From positions 120,001 to 152,000 of the forward strand of contig NC_014824.1 in assembly GCF_000179635.2 (NCBI RefSeq): DNA of 32,000 bases, written 5' to 3'. A program made the position numbers and the translations under genes. How positions within the stretch are numbered: position 1 is the first letter of the stretch; every line of letters begins with the position of its first letter. This document shows, in pieces, positions 2,790-16,568 of the stretch. The DNA is from Ruminococcus albus 7 = DSM 20455. GTDB lineage: Bacteria; Bacillota; Clostridia; Oscillospirales; Ruminococcaceae. The notes under the pieces were generated by a model that was given only the letters and a program-made list of their open reading frames with translations, was not told the DNA's origin and made no database searches.

Positions 2790-3167
2790 TTATTGTTTAA
2801 CAAATAATGTATCTTCATTCAATACGCTCCAGCTGTACCTGTCTCCTATTTCTTTTTTTCCTTTAAACTTTATGATCAACTTGGTTGCATTGTATTCTCC
2901 TTCAAGGTGGCAATATATATATCTATCATTATACTTATCAATTATAATATTACCATGTACAATTAATTCCTGATTTTCATCTGATTCATAACCTGCTTCT
3001 GATGCTTTGCGAAAAGTTTCATCGACCAAATAATGAGTATACTTGTCTTTTATATGGTTTTCAAACTTTGTTCCAAAAATCTTATTATCGGTTTTAGGAT
3101 CTGGAATATAAGCACACAGTAATAATACTAAAATTACACTTAATGTTATTATAATTGTTTTTTTCAT
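2790..3167 (-). CDS. Small secreted protein or lipoprotein (125 aa), coupled to the upstream giant protein; candidate cognate/immunity partner
   Basis: N-terminus MKKTIIITLSVILVLLLCAY is signal-peptide-like with a Cys that could be a lipobox. RBS GAGGTG precedes the ATG. Only 18 nt downstream of the stop of 3186-5783. Confidence 0.65.
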   Translation of the reverse strand: MKKTIIITLSVILVLLLCAYIPDPKTDNKIFGTKFENHIKDKYTHYLVDETFRKASEAGYESDENQELIVHGNIIIDKYNDRYIYCHLEGEYNATKLIIKFKGKKEIGDRYSWSVLNEDTLFVKQ

Positions 3168-3185
3168 AATACACCTCGAAATAAC

Positions 3186-5783
3186 TCACATTAATCCTAT
3201 TGTATTTTTAATAAAAAGAGGACTGAATGTTTTTTTCAGTTTTCCATCACTATCCTTTATAGAGTATGAAGTAGTTTTATTGTATCCAATAGGATCATAA
3301 TTACCACTTGATGCATCATCTCCAAACATTTTTTTAAAATCTACAACCGTCTTAATCGCAACATACGGCTTAAAGTAGTTACCGTTATTTGTGAAACTAT
3401 AACTGCGAGTTGTATAATCATATAATTTCGTTTTCTTATTTAATTTACCGAGTGTTAAGGAATACTTCCAAGAAGTTCTATCACAACTGTAACCAAATTC
3501 CCACTTGCCTTTATACTTAACCCAAGTATATTTCATGGTTGTATTTAAACATACATCTGATAAACGGAGAAAGTTTGCACTAGTAGTATATAAATCGTGA
3601 GGTGAAGGTGTATAGTTGAAAAGGGTCTTAATGGCAACACTGAGTGTTTTACCTGCTACAGGGTGACCAGCGCAAGAAAGCAATGCAGACACTCCAGTAC
3701 CAAATAAATTTTTCATTGCTGTATTTAATAATTTCTTTGCCCTTGTCGGATTGGTGCATTCTCCAATCAGATATATTCCGGGAGAGTAATTGCATCTCAG
3801 CTTTGGATTTTTAGTTGATACCTTATCACTTACACTTAATGAATAGTACTGATATGATTTTCCATTATATGTATATGTAGAAGAAGTACGTATTACATCA
3901 TACATTTTATCAATACCATTGCAAGGATGAAAGTCAGATTTAGCTTTTTTTATTACGTTTTTAGTGAAAATAGGATGTGTTTGTTTGTCAAATAATTCGG
4001 AGATTTCCTGATTACTTAATAATATATTTTTTTCTTCCAATGAATCTCTTAGATATTGATACTCATTTATTATATTGAGATTCTCTGGATCGTCCTTTAA
4101 TTCTTCAACCTTTTCATAATAATCTTCAATTAGTTTATCGGTATCTTGCTGATATGATTGCTCTAATTGATAAAAAGATGAAAAAACATCTGTGCTTTCT
4201 GATATAATTACATTTTCTCCATCTAATAAAATACCAGATGCGATTATGAATCCTTTAAAGTTGATCTCTTTGGAATTAATTTCAACATAACCATTTGGCG
4301 CAAAAATAATACCAGAGTAGTTGAATTCATCTGAATTAAAAGTTATATTTCCATTTTTTGAAGCAATAATTTGCGCATCGTCTTGTTGAGATATAATCGA
4401 TGAAGCATCAATCATGATCTGGTTATCAGAATATATGTTGCCATTAAGCTTAAAATCATTAGCACAGCAATTTACGTTTGAAAAATATCCATCTTCATCA
4501 ATGGTATATGAATCGGTGGTCATTTCCAATTTGTTGCTTTGGGTATTGTTATAATCAGAAAATAACGCATTTAACGAATCATAAATAAAATCATTATCGT
4601 TTTCTGTTTTATTTCCTATTTCTTTTCTTATATTTGATGAAATATAAATTTTATTGGCTGAAGAAATATTTCCACTACATTCAAAATAATTGGATTTTAT
4701 AGTTATATTATTATCTTTTCCAATAGAATTTAGTACAAATGGAGTTGCAACACTATTATCATCTATATCTAATGAATTATTAACATCTACCGTGACATTA
4801 GCATCTTTAGGGTCAATGACAATTGTATTGCTTTCAACTATCCTATCACCGTAATTACAAGCGATTTTAATATATTTTCTTTTATTAAAAGAATTAACTG
4901 CATATGAATAGGAGTTCCTGTCATAGACTTCATCCACTAAATTAAATATCTCATTATCTTCTGACTCCAGAATATCATAAACAGCATTTACATTAGATTC
5001 CCATTCAATATCTATGGATGAGTTTTTATAATCACATGCTGCAAATAATTCAATGGTTGGAGTAATATCTTCATTCATGCCATCACTTTCAGATTTACTA
5101 TTAACGAAGTCGATAAACTCATTATTAGTATTTATATTGACGGTAGAAGAATTAAAACAAATCTTTTGGGCGATTACAATTGTATTATTAAGATTTACAT
5201 TGTCAGAATTGAATATTACTGAGCCATTAGGAGCATATATTAATCCTGTAATGTTAGTGTTATTTGATGTGAAATTTATATCTCCATTTTTAGAGTATAG
5301 AACTATGTCATTATTAGTACTTGTATTTCCTTCAACCGTAATTTCATCTGTTGACATAATACTTTTATTTAGAAGTATATTTCCTTCTAATCTAATCTCA
5401 CCATCACATATGATAGGCGTGTTAACAGATATGTTTGTGTCAACCCAAGTATAATCTTCTGAATAATTATCAGATCCTTCATTGAAAAATCTGTCTGAGA
5501 TTTTATTGTTCAAATCTGGTATGTCTTTTTCAACGGATTCAAAAATATTATTAATAGTACAATTTGATATTACATCACCATTTGTACAAATACTTCCATT
5601 TAAATTAAATGTAGATGAAGAAATATTAACAGCGTCTTCTTCAAAACTTCCTGCAAATAACGCATAGGAATACATATTGTTACATGATGATTCAATTGCA
5701 ACTACAGGTATTAATCCTGATATATTAAACATTATAGCGGATGAAATAATACCGGCTGTAAATCTTTGAAACATTGTTTTCAT
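3186..5783 (-). CDS. Large secreted Asn-rich beta-helix-like protein (865 aa) with an internally duplicated N-terminal module and an unknown C-terminal domain
   Basis: Hydrophobic N-terminal segment (FTAGIISSAIMFNISGLIPVVAI). Two copies of a ~170-aa module (aa ~38-215 and ~366-525), ending GLIYAPNGSVIFNSDNVNLNNTIVIAQ and GIIFAPNGYVEINSKEINFKGFIIAS. The same module opens the protein at 13065-16250. The C-terminal ~260 aa are unrelated. RBS AGGGAG lies upstream of ATG 5783. Confidence 0.85.
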   Translation of the reverse strand: MKTMFQRFTAGIISSAIMFNISGLIPVVAIESSCNNMYSYALFAGSFEEDAVNISSSTFNLNGSICTNGDVISNCTINNIFESVEKDIPDLNNKISDRFFNEGSDNYSEDYTWVDTNISVNTPIICDGEIRLEGNILLNKSIMSTDEITVEGNTSTNNDIVLYSKNGDINFTSNNTNITGLIYAPNGSVIFNSDNVNLNNTIVIAQKICFNSSTVNINTNNEFIDFVNSKSESDGMNEDITPTIELFAACDYKNSSIDIEWESNVNAVYDILESEDNEIFNLVDEVYDRNSYSYAVNSFNKRKYIKIACNYGDRIVESNTIVIDPKDANVTVDVNNSLDIDDNSVATPFVLNSIGKDNNITIKSNYFECSGNISSANKIYISSNIRKEIGNKTENDNDFIYDSLNALFSDYNNTQSNKLEMTTDSYTIDEDGYFSNVNCCANDFKLNGNIYSDNQIMIDASSIISQQDDAQIIASKNGNITFNSDEFNYSGIIFAPNGYVEINSKEINFKGFIIASGILLDGENVIISESTDVFSSFYQLEQSYQQDTDKLIEDYYEKVEELKDDPENLNIINEYQYLRDSLEEKNILLSNQEISELFDKQTHPIFTKNVIKKAKSDFHPCNGIDKMYDVIRTSSTYTYNGKSYQYYSLSVSDKVSTKNPKLRCNYSPGIYLIGECTNPTRAKKLLNTAMKNLFGTGVSALLSCAGHPVAGKTLSVAIKTLFNYTPSPHDLYTTSANFLRLSDVCLNTTMKYTWVKYKGKWEFGYSCDRTSWKYSLTLGKLNKKTKLYDYTTRSYSFTNNGNYFKPYVAIKTVVDFKKMFGDDASSGNYDPIGYNKTTSYSIKDSDGKLKKTFSPLFIKNTIGLM

Positions 5784-7207: not shown

Positions 7208-8188
7208 GTGAAAGAAAGCTATAAGAACGATTGCCCTTATTATCTTGAGGATTTTTTGATAAATTTAAGTGTAATAAAAAATCGTGGTGATCTTACTTCA
7301 AGTGAATATTATCTTGATATAAGAACATTTTTAAGATACTTAAAGGTAAAGAATAAAATGGTTTCAGCTGAGACCAAGTTCAATGACATCACTATAAGCG
7401 ATGTTCCTATAGAAATGATAGAAAACTTTACTAAAAAAGATGCTTACCTTTATATGGTATGGCTCAAGGATGAAAGACAGAATGGAGCTTCCGCCAGAGC
7501 AAGAAAAACTACCTCACTGAAACAGTTCTATGATTACCTGGCTAATAAAGCCCAACTGATACCTAAGGATAATATGGTTTCTCTGGAAGTTCCGCACGTA
7601 AAAAGGGCCTTGCCTAAATACCTTTCACTTGACGAAGTCCAGAAGCTGCTTTCTTCCATCCGTACCAAAAACACTGAAAGAGATTATTGTATAATAACTC
7701 TGTTTTTGAATTGCGGAATGAGACTTTCTGAATTATGCGGTATAAATATAAATGATATAAGTTTTGAAAACAAGACTTTAAGGCTGATGGGTAAAGGAAA
7801 AAAAGAAAGAATAATAACCCTGAATAACAATTGTCTTGATGCTATTGAAAAATATCTTCCATACAGGAAAAATTACGAGATGGCACAAAATGAAAAAGCC
7901 TTGTTCTTGTCTTCCAGAAAGAACAGACTATCTAGACGGAGAGTTCAAAAGATAATTGAAGAATGCATAATGGATGCAGGCTTAAAAAATACGGGTGTAA
8001 CTACTCACAAGCTCAGACATACAGCTGCTACTCTGATGTATAATAATAATGGCGGAGATATTCTTGCTGTAAAAGAGATCCTTGGTCATGAAAGTACGGC
8101 AACAACAGAAATTTACACTCATCTCGGATCAGAAAAAATGAAAAATACTATGGATGTTATGGAAGATCTTCTAAAGAAAAAAGATTGA
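7208..8188 (+). CDS. Tyrosine site-specific recombinase/integrase, XerC/XerD-like
   Basis: 326 aa. N-terminal SAM-like core-binding region (LKQFYDYL). Catalytic signature GMRLSEL ... HKLRHTAATLMY ... LGHESTATTEIYTH (R...HxxR...H...Y). GTG start with SD AGAGGAG. Confidence 0.9.
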   Translation: MKESYKNDCPYYLEDFLINLSVIKNRGDLTSSEYYLDIRTFLRYLKVKNKMVSAETKFNDITISDVPIEMIENFTKKDAYLYMVWLKDERQNGASARARKTTSLKQFYDYLANKAQLIPKDNMVSLEVPHVKRALPKYLSLDEVQKLLSSIRTKNTERDYCIITLFLNCGMRLSELCGININDISFENKTLRLMGKGKKERIITLNNNCLDAIEKYLPYRKNYEMAQNEKALFLSSRKNRLSRRRVQKIIEECIMDAGLKNTGVTTHKLRHTAATLMYNNNGGDILAVKEILGHESTATTEIYTHLGSEKMKNTMDVMEDLLKKKD

Positions 8189-9124: not shown

Positions 9125-9153
9125 TTGACTTTTGAAGACTTATGCGTTATAAT
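9125..9153 (+). promoter_or_regulatory. Near-consensus sigma-A promoter for the ATPase/TOPRIM pair
   Basis: TTGACT (9125-9130), 17-nt spacer, TATAAT (9148-9153). This places the ORF-track ATG at 9142 inside the promoter. Confidence 0.6.
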
Positions 9154-9174
9154 AGAACTGAAAGGAGTATTGTT

Positions 9175-10566
9175 ATGAAAAAGGAGAAAACTAGAATCAT
9201 AAGCATTTCCATTGAAAATATTAAAAATGTTTCTAAAGGCTCGGTGCTTTTAAATAATATAAAAGAGGATTCCATGGGTGCAAGTGTAATTGGCGTTTAC
9301 GGACAAAATGGTTCAGGTAAAACTGCACTTATATGGGCTATTGGTTTTATAAAGGATGCTATTTCTGGAGCCATTCTGCCTATGGACTCACATTATTATA
9401 TACGCCAAAAATCAGAACGAACACTTATTCAGGTGAAATTTGAAATAACAATACTTGAAAGAATATACGATGTATATTATGGCATTTCATTTGGCACAAC
9501 AAACGATAGAATTCAGATACTTTCTGAAAGCATCGACTATAGTGCTAAAGCAACTGAATCATTACCAAGAATAAACAAAACACGAATTATTGGTATTGAT
9601 TATCCAATGAACTCTACGGGTCTTGATGAATGCTTTTATATCCCCGATACTCGTATTGATGAAATGGCAAGAATAAATAAGCCTGTTCGTCAAAAGCTGC
9701 TTGTTCTTCAAGCGTTGGCAAACGAAAAAATGACATCTTTCATTTTTAATGACAAAATGATGGAACTTTTAAAGGCATCATTTACTAATGATATCTTCTT
9801 TAAAATATTAGATGAACTCCGCTTTTTTGCACGAATGAATCTTTTTGTGCTTAATAAAAACTCGGAATCATCATATAATATGAATCTTCTTCCGTTAAGT
9901 ATGCGATTGAGCACACAGAATACTATCTCAAAGTCAGATGCAATTCCAGTTGGGCTCGGTCAAAATAGTGCTTCGGCTGATGCCTTTAGAACCATTCAAA
10001 GTATAATTGCGCAAATTGATCTTTTAATCGGCAATATTGTGCCTGGTCTAAAAATTGACATAATCAATAAGACATCACAATTTAATGAAAGGGCAGAAGA
10101 AGAGCTGGTATTTGAATTAGCATCTAATCGCAATGGCATCATTACACCTTTAAGATATGAATCCGAAGGAATCAAGAAGATACTATGTATTTTGAGTTCA
10201 TTGATAGCAATGTACAATGATAGTTCAATATTTGTTGCCATCGATGAAATGGATGCAGGGATCTTTGAGTATCTGTTAGGTGAAATACTTGAAACAATCA
10301 AATCTACAGGAAAAGGACAGCTTTTATTCACATCCCATAATATGCGACCTTTGGAAGTGCTGGATAATTCAAGTATTTATTTCACAACGACTAATCCTAA
10401 TAATAAATATATTAAATTTACTGGAATCAAAAACAATAATAACCTGAGAACCACTTTATTGAGAACAATAGATTTAGGCGGACAAAAAGAATCAATTTAT
10501 GAAAATACAAGTACCTACCAAATTGGAAAGGCATTTAGGAAAGCAGGGGTGCTTGTAAGTGACTGA
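9175..10566 (+). CDS. ABC/SMC-like AAA ATPase (AAA_21/AAA_15-type, AbiL-i / RloA / AriA-like)
   Basis: Start moved to ATG 9175 (SD AAAGGAG 8 nt upstream). Walker A GQNGSGKT. A long inserted region between Walker A and an ABC-signature-like YESEGIKK. Walker B IFVAIDEMD. H-loop LLFTSHN. Confidence 0.85.
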   Translation: MKKEKTRIISISIENIKNVSKGSVLLNNIKEDSMGASVIGVYGQNGSGKTALIWAIGFIKDAISGAILPMDSHYYIRQKSERTLIQVKFEITILERIYDVYYGISFGTTNDRIQILSESIDYSAKATESLPRINKTRIIGIDYPMNSTGLDECFYIPDTRIDEMARINKPVRQKLLVLQALANEKMTSFIFNDKMMELLKASFTNDIFFKILDELRFFARMNLFVLNKNSESSYNMNLLPLSMRLSTQNTISKSDAIPVGLGQNSASADAFRTIQSIIAQIDLLIGNIVPGLKIDIINKTSQFNERAEEELVFELASNRNGIITPLRYESEGIKKILCILSSLIAMYNDSSIFVAIDEMDAGIFEYLLGEILETIKSTGKGQLLFTSHNMRPLEVLDNSSIYFTTTNPNNKYIKFTGIKNNNNLRTTLLRTIDLGGQKESIYENTSTYQIGKAFRKAGVLVSD

Positions 10567-11266
10567 GAGCAAAATTATTTTATTTATTGTTGAGGGAATG
10601 AGCGATGAAGTAGCACTTGCCCCTGCGCTTGAACAAATTATTACAAGCAATACAGTCAAATTCAAAGTAATGAGGTCAGATATTACCTGTGATTTTTCTT
10701 CTACAGTTAGCAATATTGAACGTAGGATTAAAAAATTAGGCGTAAAAAAGTTCCTTGATGAAAACGCTCAGTTTAACGAAAATGACATTTGCGCAGTAAT
10801 TCATATTGTCGATTTAGATGGGGCATTTGCACCAGATTCGATTGTTATTGAAGATAACACCATAGACAAAGCGCAATATCATGACGATTCCATTGTATGT
10901 AAGGATCGAAATCTTTTTTTACAAACAAAGAATAATAAGGAACTTATCCTGTTACATTTATGCACTTTAAAAGAGATAGCCATTCCTCATGGAATTAAAG
11001 TACCATATTCTATTTATTATATGTCATGTAATCTGGATCACGTTCTTCACGATAAGAGAAATTCAACAGTTGAAGAAAAGAAAAATAATAGTTTAGATTT
11101 TTCTGATAAATATGATGACCCACTATTATTTGAAAAGTTCTTTAATGAAGGAGACATTAAAATCAATGGAACATATGAGGAAACATGGAAATACGTTCAA
11201 CAAGGATTAAACTCTTTATTGAGAGGATCAAATTTCTGGATTTGTATTAATAATCATAAGAGTTAA
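10559..11266 (+). CDS. TOPRIM-type putative nuclease (RloB / DUF4435 / OLD-TOPRIM-like), partner of the ATPase
   Basis: GTG start overlaps the ATPase stop by 8 nt. KIILFIVEGMSDEV (TOPRIM Glu), IHIVDLDGAF (DxD), YMSCNLDHVLHD resembling the RloB S-N-x-x-F-E-x-W-L-L-H block. Confidence 0.7.
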   Translation: MTESKIILFIVEGMSDEVALAPALEQIITSNTVKFKVMRSDITCDFSSTVSNIERRIKKLGVKKFLDENAQFNENDICAVIHIVDLDGAFAPDSIVIEDNTIDKAQYHDDSIVCKDRNLFLQTKNNKELILLHLCTLKEIAIPHGIKVPYSIYYMSCNLDHVLHDKRNSTVEEKKNNSLDFSDKYDDPLLFEKFFNEGDIKINGTYEETWKYVQQGLNSLLRGSNFWICINNHKS

Positions 11267-11318: not shown

Positions 11319-11537
11319 CTATTCATTTTCAACGACCATTCTTGCGCCCGACTTGAATTGGAATTCCAGATAAGTCTCGCCTATCTTTCCATTTACCACT
11401 ACCATCTTTATAGTGGTAATGCTGGCTACCTGCCAGAACATTGTTTGAAGTGTATGATTCCTTGGAGTTTTTTCTATATCTTTTTTTATTTCCCTAAAAT
11501 AATACTTTTCTCGCCTAAAAAGGCGGGATTTTTTCAT
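11319..11537 (-). CDS. Hypothetical small protein (72 aa)
   Basis: Open frame directly downstream of 11550-11771 on the same strand. No motif recognised. Confidence 0.4.
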   Translation of the reverse strand: MKKSRLFRREKYYFREIKKDIEKTPRNHTLQTMFWQVASITTIKMVVVNGKIGETYLEFQFKSGARMVVENE

Positions 11538-11549
11538 ATGAACAACCTT

Positions 11550-11771
11550 TTACTTACGAATATAAGCTATATCGATGCCAAAACACTGTGCTCCGACAAG
11601 CCATCCCGTAGATAATACCTCATATTCTAAAAGATCAGCAGGTACTCCATCTAATCTTCCGTGGTAATATTCCTCCACAAGACAATCACAATCATCATCC
11701 GGATTTCTTCCTTCAATTTTCACAATAGTGTCAGGCTCATTTTCTTTCACAAAATCGCTTATTTTAGCCAT
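11550..11771 (-). CDS. Hypothetical small acidic protein (73 aa)
   Basis: Open frame MAKISDFVKENEPDT... with AGGAAT-type SD context. No motif recognised. Confidence 0.45.
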   Translation of the reverse strand: MAKISDFVKENEPDTIVKIEGRNPDDDCDCLVEEYYHGRLDGVPADLLEYEVLSTGWLVGAQCFGIDIAYIRK

Positions 11772-11782
11772 ATAATCATTCC

Positions 11783-11925
11783 TTTATTTTAATATACTGT
11801 CTTTAATAAGTCTGAGGTTTTTGGTGTTCCAATCCCACGTGGGACCCTTTTTTTCGTTTTCTTCGATTTGAATATCAAGTTTCTGGATAACATCACAAAG
11901 AGAGGCAACTGATTTATATTCAGTT
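11783..11925 (-). pseudogene. C-terminal remnant of an unknown gene, truncated at the ~11925 junction
   Basis: Protein-like open frame without a start (...ATEYKSVASLCDVIQKLDIQIEENEKKGPTWDWNTKNLRLIKDSILK*). It ends 12 nt upstream of the 73-aa ORF and is closed by a stop just inside the GC-rich patch. Confidence 0.3.
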
Positions 11926-12298
11926 GCTGAATATCATCGACACTCTCACCGACAAGGGCGTTACCCTCGTCAGTCACAAGGAGAGCATTGATACCAACAC
12001 GCCTACGGGCAAATTCATGTTGACCGTGTTTGCTGCCCTCTCGCAGTTGGAGCGTGAACAGCTCAGACAGCGACAGCGTGAGGAAATCGAGATTGCTAAG
12101 GCACAGGGCAAGTATACGGGACGGAAACCTATCCCGACTGACTGGACGAGGTTCGGGCAGCTCTATGGGGAATGGAGAGCCAAGCGCATCACGTGGCGTG
12201 ACTTTATGCGTAAAATGGATATGTCGGCAAACACTTTTTACCGCCGTGTGCGTGAGTATGAAATTCGCAACGGCATCACCGAGCAGACCTCTGCTTGA
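11924..12298 (+). pseudogene. Serine recombinase (resolvase/invertase), 5-prime-truncated: catalytic N-terminus missing
   Basis: LNIIDTLTDKGVTLVSHKESIDTNTPTGKFMLTVFAALSQLEREQLRQRQREEIEIAKAQGKYTGRKP plus a C-terminal HTH (ANTFYRRVREYE) matches resolvase residues from ~aa 75 onward. There is no Ser-nucleophile segment. An abrupt AT-to-GC composition jump occurs at ~11925. Confidence 0.8.
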
Positions 12299-12516: not shown

Positions 12517-13068
12517 CTATGGTCTAAAAGCAGTAACGATAATCCATTTATTGTCATCATATTCTAAATATAACCTATTTGGCATCCCATCATACCCTAT
12601 ATCATAGTTGTAAGTTTCACCATTTTTTTTATAAGTTGCATGATATTCACATCCATAAAAAAATATAGCTTTATTCTTATGCCTTAGTACATCTGTTTCT
12701 TTAATAACAAATTGTTCATCTGTTATCTCATAATTATTTTCGGATAGAAAATCACGAGGATTTATATATGAAAAAGTATGGTCTGATATTATTCCTTGTA
12801 ATTCCTCTGTCAGTGTTCCATTGTAATTTAAAGAATCGTTAACTACTTTATTACCTAAATTTTCTATCTCATCTTTATCTTTAGAATGCAGAATAAATCT
12901 AAGATCCCAAACATTTAAGTATTCAGCATCTGTTTTACTTGGCTGATTATCATCGTAGTATTTATTGTTCCAGTATACCGTTCGAGTAAAAATAAATAGT
13001 ATTATGCCGAAAGATAAAGCTGCTATAATCATCACAGAGATTAGTATAACTCTTTTTCTCTTTGTCAT
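12517..13068 (-). CDS. Membrane-anchored protein (183 aa), translationally coupled to the giant amidase-domain protein; candidate immunity/cognate partner
   Basis: N-terminal TM helix VILISVMIIAALSFGIILFIF after a KRKR stretch. Its ATG overlaps the upstream stop as ATGA (13065-13068). Confidence 0.7.
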   Translation of the reverse strand: MTKRKRVILISVMIIAALSFGIILFIFTRTVYWNNKYYDDNQPSKTDAEYLNVWDLRFILHSKDKDEIENLGNKVVNDSLNYNGTLTEELQGIISDHTFSYINPRDFLSENNYEITDEQFVIKETDVLRHKNKAIFFYGCEYHATYKKNGETYNYDIGYDGMPNRLYLEYDDNKWIIVTAFRP

Positions 13069-16000
13069 AACGCATCACTCATTTGAACAATATAAACATA
13101 ATCGTAAAGATAATCATTTGGATCTTCGGTATCTTCATCAGGAGTCATTATCTTATCTGAAAGCGGTGTCATACTTGCAGGATTTGAATGACCTGCATAG
13201 TATATTTCGGAATCATCGATTTTACTAATAATGGTTGCGTGAGTAACCTCTTTTTTGGGCTTATGAACATTATGGAAATATAGTGTATCCCCAACCTTTA
13301 TTTCGAGATGATTTTGAACAAAATCTGATATTGAATCTCCACGATTAATTTTATAATATGCAATAGAATATGTTTCTTTAAAATATTTATATTGTGCTTC
13401 AGCATCAGTCCATTTTAGAGACCATTTTAATGATAAATCTTGGGCTCTATCTCCCCATACGGTAGTTATGTAATCAAATAGATTATTTTTCTTAACATAC
13501 CATAAACTATTCATCTGCATTCCACCTGCATAAACACATTGTGAAACAAAATTAGCACAATCAGAATCGATTCGCGGGTATTCTGAATTAAAAGTATTAT
13601 AATATTTCTGAGAGTATTCATATGCTGCATTTCTATCATAGATAGTATCAGAAAGATTTAATGGATATTTGTCTCTACCATCAAGTGCTCCATCATCATC
13701 TGTATCATCATCAAAAGCATTTGTGGCTGCAATCAATTCATGATAGTCATCTAATTCATCATCATCAGTATCCGGATCAGTTGGGTCACTTGTTGGTTTA
13801 AACTTAAAAATATTTATTGTTTCAAATTCCTCATCGAAAGTTTCGACCATTATCTTTTGAATGTACAAAGATTCATTTACTTCTTGACCGTCGGTCAAAT
13901 CATCTCCATCGGAATCTGGCTTATTGGGATTTGTAAAAACCAATTTTCCGTTTGGGAGTGGAATACCTGAAATATACTCTATATCATTAGGAAGACCATC
14001 ACCATCGCTGTCCTCCATCTCTCTAAAGTCAGTCATATTATTGTAAGCATAACTCTCGTATATTTTAGTAAGTCCCTCTGCTGTAGTTGCTGTAAGAGGT
14101 GTTCCACCTGTATCATTAGCGTATTGTTTTAACAGCTGGCTATTAGCCCCGGAACCAAGTGCAACTGTATGTATTCTTATTCCATTGTTTTTACAATATT
14201 TTATATTATCATCGGAAACATTTACATCTCCATCGGAAAGAAGGATAATATTTTTCTTTCCATAAACATGATTTAATTCATCAATAGCAATATCAATAGC
14301 ACTGTTAGCATTCGTTCCTCCTCTATTGTAGAAGGAAGCCTTACCGCTTAATGTACGCTTATTATTTGTCATTTCGCACTCCTCAGATGCTGATGATTCG
14401 AAAGTAATAATACTTGCGTTGTCAAAAACAAACATTGACTCAACATAATTCTGTACTGCTATGTTTCTATAACAAGTTAATACACCATTATCGTCTTTAA
14501 AGCTTTTGTCATTGGTTGACATACTTCCGGAGCAATCAACGCATATTGCAGTATATGAAGGAATTGCAGAAAAAATAGCGGCGTAGGAATTATAGATTTT
14601 TCTCCAGTTATTAAACCATTCTGTTTTATCTACAACCATATACTTACTAAAATGTTCCGTTTCAATGGAAACAATAGAGTTTTCACTATCATAGAAGGTA
14701 TCAAGTTCTACAAACTCTTTTTTCTTTTCATCATACCATAAAAACATCAGATTGTCAAACTCTGTATCGCCCAGCTTGCTCTGATCTATTTTAAAGCTCA
14801 AAGTAGCTTTTTTATATTCTGATGAAATTTTAATAGAGAAAGGTTCTCCAACAAGTCCCACAACATCTGTACACATTTTGTCTTTGTTCATGACACTTTT
14901 AATTTTTGCAGTCTTCTGAAGATTACCCGTACCCTCCATAGAAACGATAACTTCTGTTACAGCACAATCCTCGTTCTCTACCTTGTGGGTAAATGTCTGA
15001 GAACGTCTCTCTTCGCCGTCAAGTTCACCATCATCGTCAGTATCGGGATCGTTGGGGTCTGTACCGAAATATATCTCGTCATCATCATTCAGACCGTCCT
15101 TGTCGGTATCCATTTCGAGAGGATCAGTGTAATATTTATCACCCTCTTCGCCGTCTTTGAGGTTATCTCCGTCGGTATCATCAGCATAAGGTCTTGTGCC
15201 TATCTCATATTCACGACCGTTTGAAAGACCATCTTCATCGTAATCTTCATCGTAATCAGATACGCCATTATTGTCTGTATCGATTTTCAAAGGATCGGTT
15301 CCGAGAGAAAGTACTTCATATCCATCAGGCAGAAGATCTCCGTCAGTATCAGCCTCATAAGGCTTTGTACCTATTTCCTTTTCTATAATGTTTGGCAGAC
15401 CGTCTTTGTCTGTATCAGCAAGATACTTCCAATCAGCAAAAGTCCAGCTTAGTTCTTCGGTTTCAGTACCTACAAATTCTGCCCATGTGTTGCTGTAATT
15501 GATGTTAGCACCATAGCGGCTGCTAATAACAACATTCTGTGCGATTATGATACCGTTCAGATTAAAATTGTCACAGTCGATGGTAACTGTACCAAATGGC
15601 GCATAGATCAGACCGTTCATTGAAGCTTGGCTTTCATCGATCTTTATATCACCGAATTTGGAATAGATCACAGCATTGTTGCCGTTGAGATTTCCGCCGC
15701 TTAGAGTAACATCGGAAACCGCACCGATTGCGGTATTCAGAGCCATATTGCCATTATATGACATCTTGCCTGTAACATATACAGGCGAATTTAGGTTGAT
15801 GTTCATCTCTGACAGAGTGTAATCATTATCAAAGTTCCTGCCATTATTGAACCAGCCGGTCATCAGCTTGTTGTGGATATAGATCATATCCCTGCTGATA
15901 TCGAAAGCTTTAGCGCTGTCCTGTGCATCGGTGGCGTTTTCATCATCGGTGACTACCTCATCAACAGCAAGTGCTTCGTTCTCCAAAATAGTACCATTTA

Positions 16001-16250
16001 CATTCGGATACTTTGCAGTTGTCGAATAAACACCGTTTGTACAAGCATTGCCATTGACCGTCAGATAATTAAGGTCAAGCTTAATGCCACCTAGTTCATC
16101 CGCAGCAAATATCGCATACGGATATGCTTCCTGCTTACTTGCAGAGTCAGCACTTGCAGGTAAAACTGCTGACATACTTGTTGTTATCATAGCTAATGAT
16201 AACAGCCCGGAAACAATACGTTTCTGGTTTTTTGATCGTTTTTGATCCAT
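13065..16250 (-). CDS. Giant secreted multidomain protein: beta-helix-like module + TSP3-type Ca-binding repeats + vWA domain + TSP3 repeats + C-terminal Amidase_6/NlpC-P60-like putative amidase
   Basis: Start moved to ATG 16250 (SD GGAGGG 5 nt upstream).
Domains, numbered from the ORF-track M1:
- Signal peptide LLSLAMITTSMSAVLPASA.
- Module with GLIYAPFGTVTIDCDNFNLNGIIIAQ (aa ~55-265).
- Asp-rich repeats DTDKDGLPN / DTDGDLLPDG / GTDP...DTD (aa ~291-427 and ~758-872).
- vWA MIDAS VDCSGSMS, GGTNANSAI, IILLSDGD (aa ~578-745).
- C-terminal YDRNAAYEYSQKY...DCANFVSQCVYAGG...THATIIS...YAGHSN (aa ~883-1040). Confidence 0.88.
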   Translation of the reverse strand: MDQKRSKNQKRIVSGLLSLAMITTSMSAVLPASADSASKQEAYPYAIFAADELGGIKLDLNYLTVNGNACTNGVYSTTAKYPNVNGTILENEALAVDEVVTDDENATDAQDSAKAFDISRDMIYIHNKLMTGWFNNGRNFDNDYTLSEMNINLNSPVYVTGKMSYNGNMALNTAIGAVSDVTLSGGNLNGNNAVIYSKFGDIKIDESQASMNGLIYAPFGTVTIDCDNFNLNGIIIAQNVVISSRYGANINYSNTWAEFVGTETEELSWTFADWKYLADTDKDGLPNIIEKEIGTKPYEADTDGDLLPDGYEVLSLGTDPLKIDTDNNGVSDYDEDYDEDGLSNGREYEIGTRPYADDTDGDNLKDGEEGDKYYTDPLEMDTDKDGLNDDDEIYFGTDPNDPDTDDDGELDGEERRSQTFTHKVENEDCAVTEVIVSMEGTGNLQKTAKIKSVMNKDKMCTDVVGLVGEPFSIKISSEYKKATLSFKIDQSKLGDTEFDNLMFLWYDEKKKEFVELDTFYDSENSIVSIETEHFSKYMVVDKTEWFNNWRKIYNSYAAIFSAIPSYTAICVDCSGSMSTNDKSFKDDNGVLTCYRNIAVQNYVESMFVFDNASIITFESSASEECEMTNNKRTLSGKASFYNRGGTNANSAIDIAIDELNHVYGKKNIILLSDGDVNVSDDNIKYCKNNGIRIHTVALGSGANSQLLKQYANDTGGTPLTATTAEGLTKIYESYAYNNMTDFREMEDSDGDGLPNDIEYISGIPLPNGKLVFTNPNKPDSDGDDLTDGQEVNESLYIQKIMVETFDEEFETINIFKFKPTSDPTDPDTDDDELDDYHELIAATNAFDDDTDDDGALDGRDKYPLNLSDTIYDRNAAYEYSQKYYNTFNSEYPRIDSDCANFVSQCVYAGGMQMNSLWYVKKNNLFDYITTVWGDRAQDLSLKWSLKWTDAEAQYKYFKETYSIAYYKINRGDSISDFVQNHLEIKVGDTLYFHNVHKPKKEVTHATIISKIDDSEIYYAGHSNPASMTPLSDKIMTPDEDTEDPNDYLYDYVYIVQMSDAL

Positions 16251-16568
16251 TTTAACCCTCCTGAATAAATTTTCATGCCGAATTTGCATGGCGAATTACT
16301 TATAATTGATAACGCGCGAAAGTTAATATATCATGTTCATTATAGAATGTCAATAAATTAGTATACGATTTAGGATTATATACTTAATTATTGTTAATCA
16401 ACCAAATTACCACATTATAGAATAGACAATTAACTCGATACGCAAAAGCAGTCACACTTCACTTATGGTTAAAACTAATCGATTTCGGTGTTTTAGAAAA
16501 AAAGCCAAAATTGAATCAAAATATGATCAATCAACAACAGTGATAGACAAATTCAACTCCATAAGATG

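Follow-up and report, generated by a model that had tools for sequence, protein, structure and literature searches.

Candidate Sec-dependent polymorphic toxin and membrane-anchored immunity protein encoded by a low-GC mobile island in Ruminococcus albus

Sec-exported polymorphic toxin systems (Zhang et al. 2012, PMC3482391) combine a signal peptide and a conserved N-terminal region with a C-terminal toxin domain that is exchanged by recombination; the toxin gene is followed directly by its immunity gene, which stays stably with it. Polyimmunity loci near recombinases and mobile elements also belong to these systems. A gene pair alike in these respects was analysed in 32,000 nucleotides of Ruminococcus albus 7 = DSM 20455 (contig NC_014824.1, positions 120,001 to 152,000; this whole stretch is called the window). 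One gene encodes a putative secreted amidase of 1061 residues, referred to below as the toxin, and the other a membrane-anchored protein of 183 residues, referred to as the partner. Sequence comparisons make it quite probable that the two genes, on a low-GC mobile island, encode a polymorphic toxin exported by Sec together with the immunity protein cognate to it, and the most likely function is that of a secreted toxin that cuts the cell wall, accompanied by its own membrane-anchored antidote. In every respect that can be tested computationally, the locus presents itself as a polymorphic toxin system, and its family even shares tails with the catalogued ones (Tox-REase-7 with HEAT-repeat immunity).

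Several traits distinguish the R. albus pair from the systems described so far. The trunk that precedes the amidase is absent from the 2012 catalogue, in which vWA, thrombospondin and Ruminococcus are unmentioned (PMC3482391); the toxin family has no RHS, filamentous-haemagglutinin, LXG or HINT elements, most of its tails look envelope-directed and most of its candidate immunity proteins are membrane- or lipid-anchored. No description of the trunk family was found in the literature, of which most subscription journals lay outside the search, so an earlier description is possible. The trunk architecture appears to be new, while the kind to which it belongs, the polymorphic toxin system, is known. 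The S8-PTS of Gram-positive bacteria (PMC9424270) has a 120-aa BetaH domain and a linked S8 peptidase; identity with it was ruled out by the different domain and because no S8 peptidase was present among the window open reading frames (ORFs) scanned.

Type VI Tae/Tai pairs such as Tae3-Tai3 (PDB 4HZ9) also use a papain-like Cys-His peptidoglycan amidase as antibacterial toxin, neutralised by an extracytoplasmic immunity protein encoded alongside, for which the partner is the candidate here. They differ in being injected into the periplasm through a type VI secretion system (T6SS), whereas the R. albus toxin would leave a Gram-positive cell by Sec export with its enzyme fused to an 835-aa trunk. 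LXG toxins of the type VII secretion system (T7SS), e.g. TelC-TipC (PMC5555719), are likewise interbacterial toxins of Firmicutes. Identity with them was rejected, as the R. albus toxin carries a classical signal peptide instead of an LXG domain, and no LXG or T7SS Pfam matches were obtained in the toxin or in the window ORFs scanned, WXG100 and EssC included. TelC reportedly acts on cell-wall precursors at the outward-facing side of the membrane and is said to be blocked by a membrane-anchored extracellular immunity protein.

Both genes lie on the minus strand where a first-pass annotation of the window had placed them, and all the features it described are present. Their parts are as follows.

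13065..16289, minus strand: large ORF
13065..16250, minus strand: toxin gene, 1061 aa plus stop
16256..16262, minus strand: ribosome-binding site AGGAGGG, 5 nt upstream of the ATG at 16250 (sequence reading)
16325..16353, minus strand: promoter-like site, TTGACA, 17-nt spacer and TG-extended TATATT (consensus match only)
16149..16250, minus strand: Sec signal peptide, aa 1-34, with basic n-region, hydrophobic core and likely cleavage site ASA|D (sequence reading)
15465..16130, minus strand: N-module, aa ~41-262, predicted right-handed beta-helix flanked by one long helix, fold like that of ice-binding proteins (AlphaFold2 and Foldseek)
15006..15422, minus strand: first Asp-rich, TSP3-like Ca-binding repeat block, aa ~277-415 (D.D.D..D motifs)
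14616..15005, minus strand: middle domain, aa ~416-545, without Pfam match (defined by conservation)
14058..14546, minus strand: vWA domain with complete metal-ion-dependent adhesion site (MIDAS; D572, S574, S576, T646, D673) (Pfam and alignment)
13671..14015, minus strand: second TSP3-like repeat block, aa ~746-860, including the trunk/tail breakpoint at aa ~835 (window ~13746)
13158..13640, minus strand: Amidase_6 domain, aa ~871-1031 (Pfam PF12671)
13557-13559, 13239-13241 and 13188-13190, minus strand: candidate catalytic residues C898, H1004 and H1021
12517..13068, minus strand: candidate immunity gene (partner), 183 aa, ATGA overlap with the toxin stop codon (13065-13068)
12985..13065, minus strand: membrane anchor of the partner, aa 2-28, after MTKRKR (positive-inside rule), hydrophobicity 2.96, helix in the model
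12523..12933, minus strand: extracytoplasmic domain of the partner, aa ~46-182, predicted NTF2-like (alpha+beta cone) fold (AlphaFold2, Foldseek)

The toxin was compared with 5.8 billion proteins, which gave 3774 matches, and the best 120 of these were analysed. They are Ruminococcus-type proteins of 770-1350 aa, most of which cover only the first 73-83 % of the toxin, with alignments to most of them stopping at toxin aa ~790-850. Past this breakpoint at least 14 unrelated tail types were found in the best 120. A scan with one genome per species yielded 78 loci from Ruminococcus, Lachnospiraceae and Oscillospiraceae, and the 67 complete tails among them fell into 29 clusters. Pfam assigned DUF4474 to 10 of these tails, Amidase_6 to 3, DUF3289, Lipase_3, PG_binding_1 and Peptidase_C39_2 to 2 each and Tox-REase-7 to one; lectin-like (ricin B, F5/8 type C) and alpha/beta-hydrolase domains are further tails of the family. 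For DUF3289, a role as colicin M-like antibacterial effector has experimental support (PMC11148199), and Tox-REase-7 is a polymorphic-toxin nuclease catalogued in PMC3482391.

The identity between family members changes abruptly along the protein. Two homologues (P0009 and P0010) have an N-module 94-96 % identical to that of the toxin, a vWA domain ~51-52 % identical and unrelated tails; another (P0013) has a vWA domain 82 % identical and an N-module of 37 %, and a third (P0099, locus L097) is just 38 % identical in its N-module and 56 % in its amidase tail. Such mosaics, together with the displaced cassettes described below, indicate that the genes diversify by recombination.

At most loci, a small ORF starts between ~80 nt before and ~40 nt after the toxin stop, usually with an N-terminal membrane helix or a lipoprotein signal. 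Tails and downstream ORFs were clustered independently, and the agreement between both groupings was assessed by label permutation (5000 trials). Concordance for tail and downstream cluster was found in 38 locus pairs, compared to 2.3 on average and 13 at most under permutation, so that none of the 5000 trials reached 38, and a downstream cluster was common to different tails in only 2 locus pairs. Simple co-descent does not account for this concordance, because the trunk identities contradict it: the trunks of L022 and L011 are 96 % identical while their tails and downstream genes differ, whereas in L045/L044 and L070/L056 the trunks are ~41-43 % identical and tail and downstream gene are alike.

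The recognisable families encoded downstream were DUF5104 (7 loci, in each case behind a DUF4474 tail), chagasin-type peptidase inhibitor I42 (5 loci), RCC1, ankyrin and HEAT. At locus L093, the Tox-REase-7 tail (79.9 bits) is followed by a HEAT-repeat protein without membrane anchor, a pairing of nuclease and immunity protein already tabulated in PMC3482391. According to the same work, which covers immunity to surface-acting toxins, immunity proteins are located where their toxin acts; anchored partners for most tails and an unanchored one for the nuclease therefore fit this rule.

Five loci (L033, L044, L045, L054 and L087) have a tail without Pfam match followed by a lipoprotein with a chagasin-type (I42) cysteine-peptidase inhibitor domain. 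Because this inhibitor is consistently found downstream, the tail type is predicted to be a papain-like peptidase.

The partner itself follows the amidase tail even where the trunk has diverged to 38 %. Its synteny, singled out beforehand as a point on which the proposed pairing could fail, is maintained beside homologous amidase tails in four further loci (L097, L098 and L102/L103, three sequence-distinct versions). Tail and partner identities are 88 and 84 % in L102, 70 and 73 % in L098, and 56 and 47 % in L097, and the ATGA overlap, read directly at 13065-13068 in the window, is present in all four loci.

Partner homologues also occur in arrays without toxin. L107/L108 (7001-9514) contain two partner paralogues and then two DUF5104 genes, adjoining ParA/ParB and a giant MuF_C protein, and L104-L106 (L104 258-8374) contain two partner paralogues and a homologue of the downstream gene of L025, adjoining an ATP-binding cassette (ABC)/FtsX transporter. 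By their gene content, such arrays resemble polyimmunity or acquired-defence islands; 'polyimmunity loci' have been described in PMC3482391. Within L104 (6399-7004), a 201-aa membrane protein ends in ...DYAYIIQMSDAL, 10/12 identical to the last 12 residues of the toxin, with the rest of the protein unrelated. Its ORF overlaps the partner homologue by 4 nt, and at the DNA level homology to the window sets in ~35 nt before the partner ATG, an arrangement that resembles a displaced toxin-end/immunity cassette.

The C-terminal domain of the toxin had been assigned to a putative amidase by the first-pass annotation, and the Amidase_6 profile (PF12671) scored 71.2 bits on the whole toxin and 75.8 bits on the tail alone, with a cutoff of 23.2. 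This score and that of the vWA domain are far beyond chance. C898, H1004 and H1021 are invariant in seven tails of two amidase subtypes that share only ~30 % identity, and they provide the Cys nucleophile and the His expected of the Cys-His dyad of PMC10318531. The second subtype (P0011, P0013 and P0127) is 31-34 % identical to the toxin tail, retains the motifs DCANFVSQC...HAT.IS...YA(G/A)H and is followed by a different membrane-anchored ORF of 155 aa. A weak alignment of the tail to the NlpC/P60 hydrolase 9ubf (E 1.8) places DC.., GD..H and YHAG in register. Amidase_6 has been described as a Cys-His papain-like group of peptidoglycan amidase effectors, grouped with Tae3 (PMC10318531). From the Pfam score, the three invariant residues and this classification, the tail can be assigned to Amidase_6 as a putative papain-like Cys/His enzyme, presumably of NlpC/P60 fold, and its relationship to Tae3 is suggested by PMC10318531 only.

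The partner was modelled with AlphaFold2 from 12 sequences, with a mean predicted local distance difference test score (pLDDT) of 85. The model contains a helix at aa 2-28, a disordered linker and a C-terminal domain of helices on a five-stranded curved sheet, in agreement, like its Lys/Arg-rich N-terminus, with the single-pass membrane protein with extracytoplasmic domain that had been proposed. All interpretable Foldseek matches were NTF2- or cystatin-like (Csd6 C-terminal domain, ARC6/PARC6, CaMKII hub and SnoaL-type enzymes), and the ectodomain is accordingly modelled as an NTF2-like fold, a fold already known among immunity proteins (PMC3482391, PMC3924330). No Pfam match was obtained for the partner at E<=10, and the UniRef label DUF4829 was discarded as it could not be reproduced with Pfam even at that threshold. 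Neither DUF4829 nor any other NTF2 family matched significantly among 12 members of the partner family (NTF2_YvbJ reached E 0.47 in one). The partner, listed at NCBI as 'hypothetical protein', is treated here as a small separate family on the basis of its sequence: an indexed search gave 12 clusters and an exhaustive profile search 40 representatives among 1.84 billion, and nearly all members have 160-200 aa and the same layout. No intrinsic terminator was detected downstream of the partner gene. Two small ORFs (73 and 72 aa; window 11319-11771, minus strand) follow it, neither with a family match, and both are also called as genes in a metagenomic copy (L001).

Several observations weigh against the pair being a toxin and its immunity protein. 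First, the same tail cluster is followed by different downstream clusters in 69 locus pairs, part of which may stem from crude ORF calling. Second, toxin-less partner homologues are found after a lipoprotein and an ABC/FtsX transporter (L013-L017) and after fructose-bisphosphatase (L005-L008), and their position beside ordinary genes fits orphan immunity but also a toxin-independent role. Third, the Foldseek matches of the partner have probabilities of 0.9-0.99 but E-values of just 0.01-0.1, and are thus weak. Fourth, because NTF2-like domains accompany the peptidoglycan peptidases Csd6, Pgp2 and Bd1075, the partner could by analogy be an accessory rather than an inhibitor. Fifth, PDB sequence searches with the tail and with a tail profile gave nothing significant, and Tae3 (4HZ9) was not retrieved even at E<=10. 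Sixth, no dedicated secretion gene, release protease or anchor was found among the window ORFs scanned. The first-pass annotation had read the pair as a cell-wall effector, antibacterial or autolytic, with a cognate protector and a Ca-stabilised stalk, and this is supported by the polymorphic tails, the co-varying downstream gene, the known toxin and immunity domains and the toxin-less arrays, with 'autolytic' being less likely than 'antibacterial'. We infer that the partner binds the toxin.

The toxin gene probably starts with the ATG at 16250, which is favoured by the AGGAGGG sequence, by the promoter-like site upstream and by the N-termini of the homologues, which begin at the equivalent position. 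The promoter-like site matches the consensus at 11/12 positions, with a near-consensus extended -10, and lies ~75 nt upstream of this ATG. A 1074-aa version starting from the ATG at 16289 was rejected, since the ribosome-binding site and the homologue N-termini point to 16250. The signal peptide is of typical Sec type, as expected from a protein that had been called secreted, and its A34 is invariant across 19 homologues; aa 1-40 were modelled with pLDDT <50. The toxin is 100 % identical to the NCBI entry 'amidase domain-containing protein [Ruminococcus albus]'.

The conserved trunk, ~835 residues long, is composed in this order of the N-terminal beta-helix, TSP3-like repeats, the middle domain, the vWA domain and a second repeat block, after which the Amidase_6 domain follows. 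The model of the N-module (aa 1-275, alignment of 29 sequences) has a mean pLDDT of 79.9, with a core >90, and consists almost entirely of beta-strands plus a single long helix. Its top 27 Foldseek matches in the PDB are all DUF3494-type ice-binding beta-helices, the best with E 3e-5, probability 1.0 and template-modelling (TM) scores of 0.42/0.50; weak matches to the fold of tapirin, a cellulose adhesin, were also obtained. The beta-helix-like nature predicted for this module was therefore borne out by the model. At the sequence level, no Pfam match of the toxin to DUF3494 or DUF7305 was found at E<=0.1, and a PDB sequence search with the N-module gave nothing significant. Consequently, the N-module is placed with the DUF3494 ice-binding proteins, whose right-handed beta-helix and long flanking helix it appears to share, at fold level and without sequence membership of DUF3494 or DUF7305. 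Ice binding is of no use to an anaerobe of gut or rumen, so the module probably has another role, that of binding surfaces or glycans or of a spacer.

Eight D.D.D..D motifs form two blocks, at aa 301-411 and 779-857, those of the first repeat block being found at aa 301, 332, 358, 381 and 403. Asp-rich repeats of the putative Ca-binding type that had been described are thus present. The TSP3_bac profile reached only 19.1 bits on the toxin, short of its cutoff of 25; PF18884 is found in many homologues. The middle domain is the most uniformly conserved block of the trunk, with 72-84 % identity across all homologues compared and many invariant columns, and a beta-rich sandwich is our guess for it from the sequence. 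The vWA domain scored 37.4 bits with VWA (cutoff 23.8) and 33.4 bits with VWA_2 (cutoff 27), and the MIDAS residues D572, S574, S576 and D673 are invariant, and T646 nearly so, in 19 homologues, as anticipated from the intact motif. This domain is also the most variable block of the trunk, as seen in P0009 and P0010, with its MIDAS residues unchanged; its divergence relative to the N-module may reflect a diversifying recognition specificity or a second recombination module. The conserved motif F..SDP...D(T/S)D.D is found just before trunk and tail diverge.

The core formed by TSP3 repeats, middle domain and vWA is older and wider than the family, with ~30 % identical proteins on haloarchaeal megaplasmids and on the Vibrio nigripulchritudo plasmid pA. 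The latter (L109 4863-8745) is a conjugative plasmid on which the gene adjoins an N-acyl-homoserine lactone (AHL) synthase and LuxR; the haloarchaeal example (L110 4557-10312) is Haloarcula marismortui pHMA288. The proteins of both have long unannotated C-termini and a small ORF downstream. A plasmid search returned just such distant TSP3-vWA proteins and no close relative of the toxin.

This trunk could also be that of a surface adhesin or colonisation factor that binds plant fibre, mucus or cells, with the tail remodelling the wall of the producer or a substrate and the 183-aa protein acting as anchor, chaperone or regulator. The intact MIDAS and the TSP3 repeats recall the secreted gliding adhesin CglD of Myxococcus, which also combines Ca-binding repeats with a MIDAS vWA, and the tapirin-like matches, the presence of the core in haloarchaeal and Vibrio proteins without known role and the NTF2 domains that accompany Csd6, Pgp2 and Bd1075 would be compatible with such a function. 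However, the match to the CglD profile (48.9 bits, cutoff 400) covers the repeats alone, and CglD has neither a toxin tail nor a linked immunity gene. Adhesion leaves unexplained why the tails are exchanged among 29 or more unrelated domains, a nuclease toxin and a colicin M-like one among them, and gives no account of a downstream gene that changes with the tail, of protease inhibitors and HEAT/ankyrin immunity types at that position or of the build-up of downstream genes in toxin-less arrays. An adhesin is therefore unlikely and is no true rival, as binding is probably what the vWA/TSP3 trunk contributes to the same weapon.

The genomic setting bears on whether the toxin is instead an autolysin for housekeeping or development, with an inhibitor in the membrane through which the producer regulates turnover, separation or lysis of its own wall. 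Toxin and partner are located in a low-GC stretch at ~2.6-18 kb of the window, with a GC content of 0.27-0.41 compared to ~0.46 in the flanks. The following elements were recognised in this stretch or at its edge.

580-2091: IS66 transposase, at the left edge of the low-GC stretch
7208-8188: tyrosine integrase
11924-12298: resolvase remnant

Because these elements accompany the drop in GC, the toxin genes are assigned, from sequence composition and content, to a composite mobile island. Only the last ~64 residues of the catalytic domain are left of the truncated resolvase, and the right flank consists of housekeeping genes (Rex, AdhE and hydrogenases). No tRNA genes marking an integration site were found in the window, and no island ends were identified in it. 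Enzymes of the Amidase_6 and NlpC/P60 groups are frequent among autolysins, such tight coupling of translation would be fitting for a dedicated regulator and the first-pass annotation had allowed for this function. However, the location on a low-GC island that carries integrase, IS66 element, resolvase remnant and a gene resembling abortive-infection ones, and a partner family as tiny as the one described above, speak against it, and the very different tails of sister genes in related strains, whose N-termini are 94-96 % identical, would be unexpected for a housekeeping enzyme. Such an autolysin is thus quite improbable.

It is very unlikely that the toxin is aimed at rumen protozoa, fungi, host tissue or phage, with the downstream gene serving only to avert damage during export. 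Such targets would agree with the lipase, alpha/beta-hydrolase and lectin-like tails of the family and with the defence-like gene on the same island. However, the tail of the toxin is a peptidoglycan-type amidase, exposure of bacteria themselves to the toxins is implied by the extracytoplasmic immunity and the polyimmunity arrays, and neither PHROGs nor PADLOC gave any match for toxin or partner. The same lack of matches makes a prophage lysin or a known defence system unlikely for both proteins.

As a polymorphic toxin with cognate immunity, the pair could work as follows. After export of the toxin, the Ca-loaded repeats would act as a rigid spacer, and the MIDAS of the vWA domain and/or the beta-helix would bind a surface ligand on neighbouring bacteria; the vWA domain is the proposed recognition element because it is the most variable block of the trunk. 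The amidase would then cut peptidoglycan from outside and would not have to get into the cell. Protection of the producer and its kin would come from the coupled 183-aa membrane protein, whose NTF2-like domain, facing outward, would bind and block the amidase at its site of action, and recombination near residue 835 would bring in new warhead/immunity cassettes. The delivery itself is conjectural, as no release protease, anchor or dedicated secretion gene was found among the window ORFs scanned.

Once classified, a single gene pair of this kind is ordinary; the family is large, is present in keystone bacteria of gut and rumen and is apparently unstudied. Tentatively, its trunk may represent a major unrecognised platform for Sec-dependent interbacterial toxins in gut and rumen Clostridia (Ruminococcus, Lachnospiraceae and Oscillospiraceae), with thousands of proteins, dozens of mostly envelope-aimed warheads, a variable vWA domain for target recognition, loci often under Agr/LytTR quorum sensing and mobile polyimmunity islands as a counter. 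If so, it would be a Gram-positive analogue of contact-dependent inhibition (CDI) and T6SS warfare without a dedicated secretion machine, with a principle of delivery that needs nothing beyond Sec export and a stalk for binding. Among the fibre degraders of the rumen and the human colon, Ruminococcus species hold a keystone position. Competition between their strains, R. albus against R. flavefaciens, was recognised as early as the 1990s, but few molecules have been held responsible for it (PMC8092306). If the proposal is correct, a toxin family whose warheads are exchangeable, with antidotes that match them and mobile arrays of such antidotes, would provide concrete genes for who excludes whom in these communities, and would give testable roles to DUF4474 with DUF5104 and to the partner family.

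An Agr-like/LytTR quorum-sensing module, absent from the window, was found within 8 kb of the toxin gene at other loci, with AgrB in 8 loci and regulator plus kinase in ~16 of ~80; many bacteriocin loci of Firmicutes have such a module too. Immediately upstream of several family members, in a set of loci that comprises L009 (4959-7967), L010, L018 (113-1006) and about 16 others, there are Agr-like genes for AgrB, short AgrD-like peptides, a LytTR regulator and a histidine kinase. The position of these genes upstream of several members suggests a density-dependent expression.

Two further sets of genes were recognised on the island. An AAA_21 ATPase (window 9142-11266, plus strand) with a PADLOC match to AbiLi (103 bits) overlaps a 235-aa protein without family match, and both are possibly an AbiL-like abortive-infection pair. 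The other set comprises two genes.

3186-5783, minus strand: second secreted protein, 865 aa, DUF7305 match (40.9 bits)
2790-3167, minus strand: lipoprotein-like gene, 125 aa, 18 nt after the 865-aa gene

The N-terminal ~230 residues are common to the 865-aa protein and the toxin (31 % identity, E 5e-29), and it is this paralogue, and not the toxin itself, that matches DUF7305. It contains a partial second copy of the N-module at ~aa 470-520, has no TSP3 or vWA domains and ends in an unannotated C-terminus unrelated to that of the toxin. The 125-aa protein was considered as a relative of the 183-aa partner, and their comparison showed the two to be unrelated. Both genes may form a second toxin/immunity pair on a shorter trunk, and a gene similar to the 865-aa one is found near a trunk-type gene in R. 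albus KH2T6 (L021 17055-17984).

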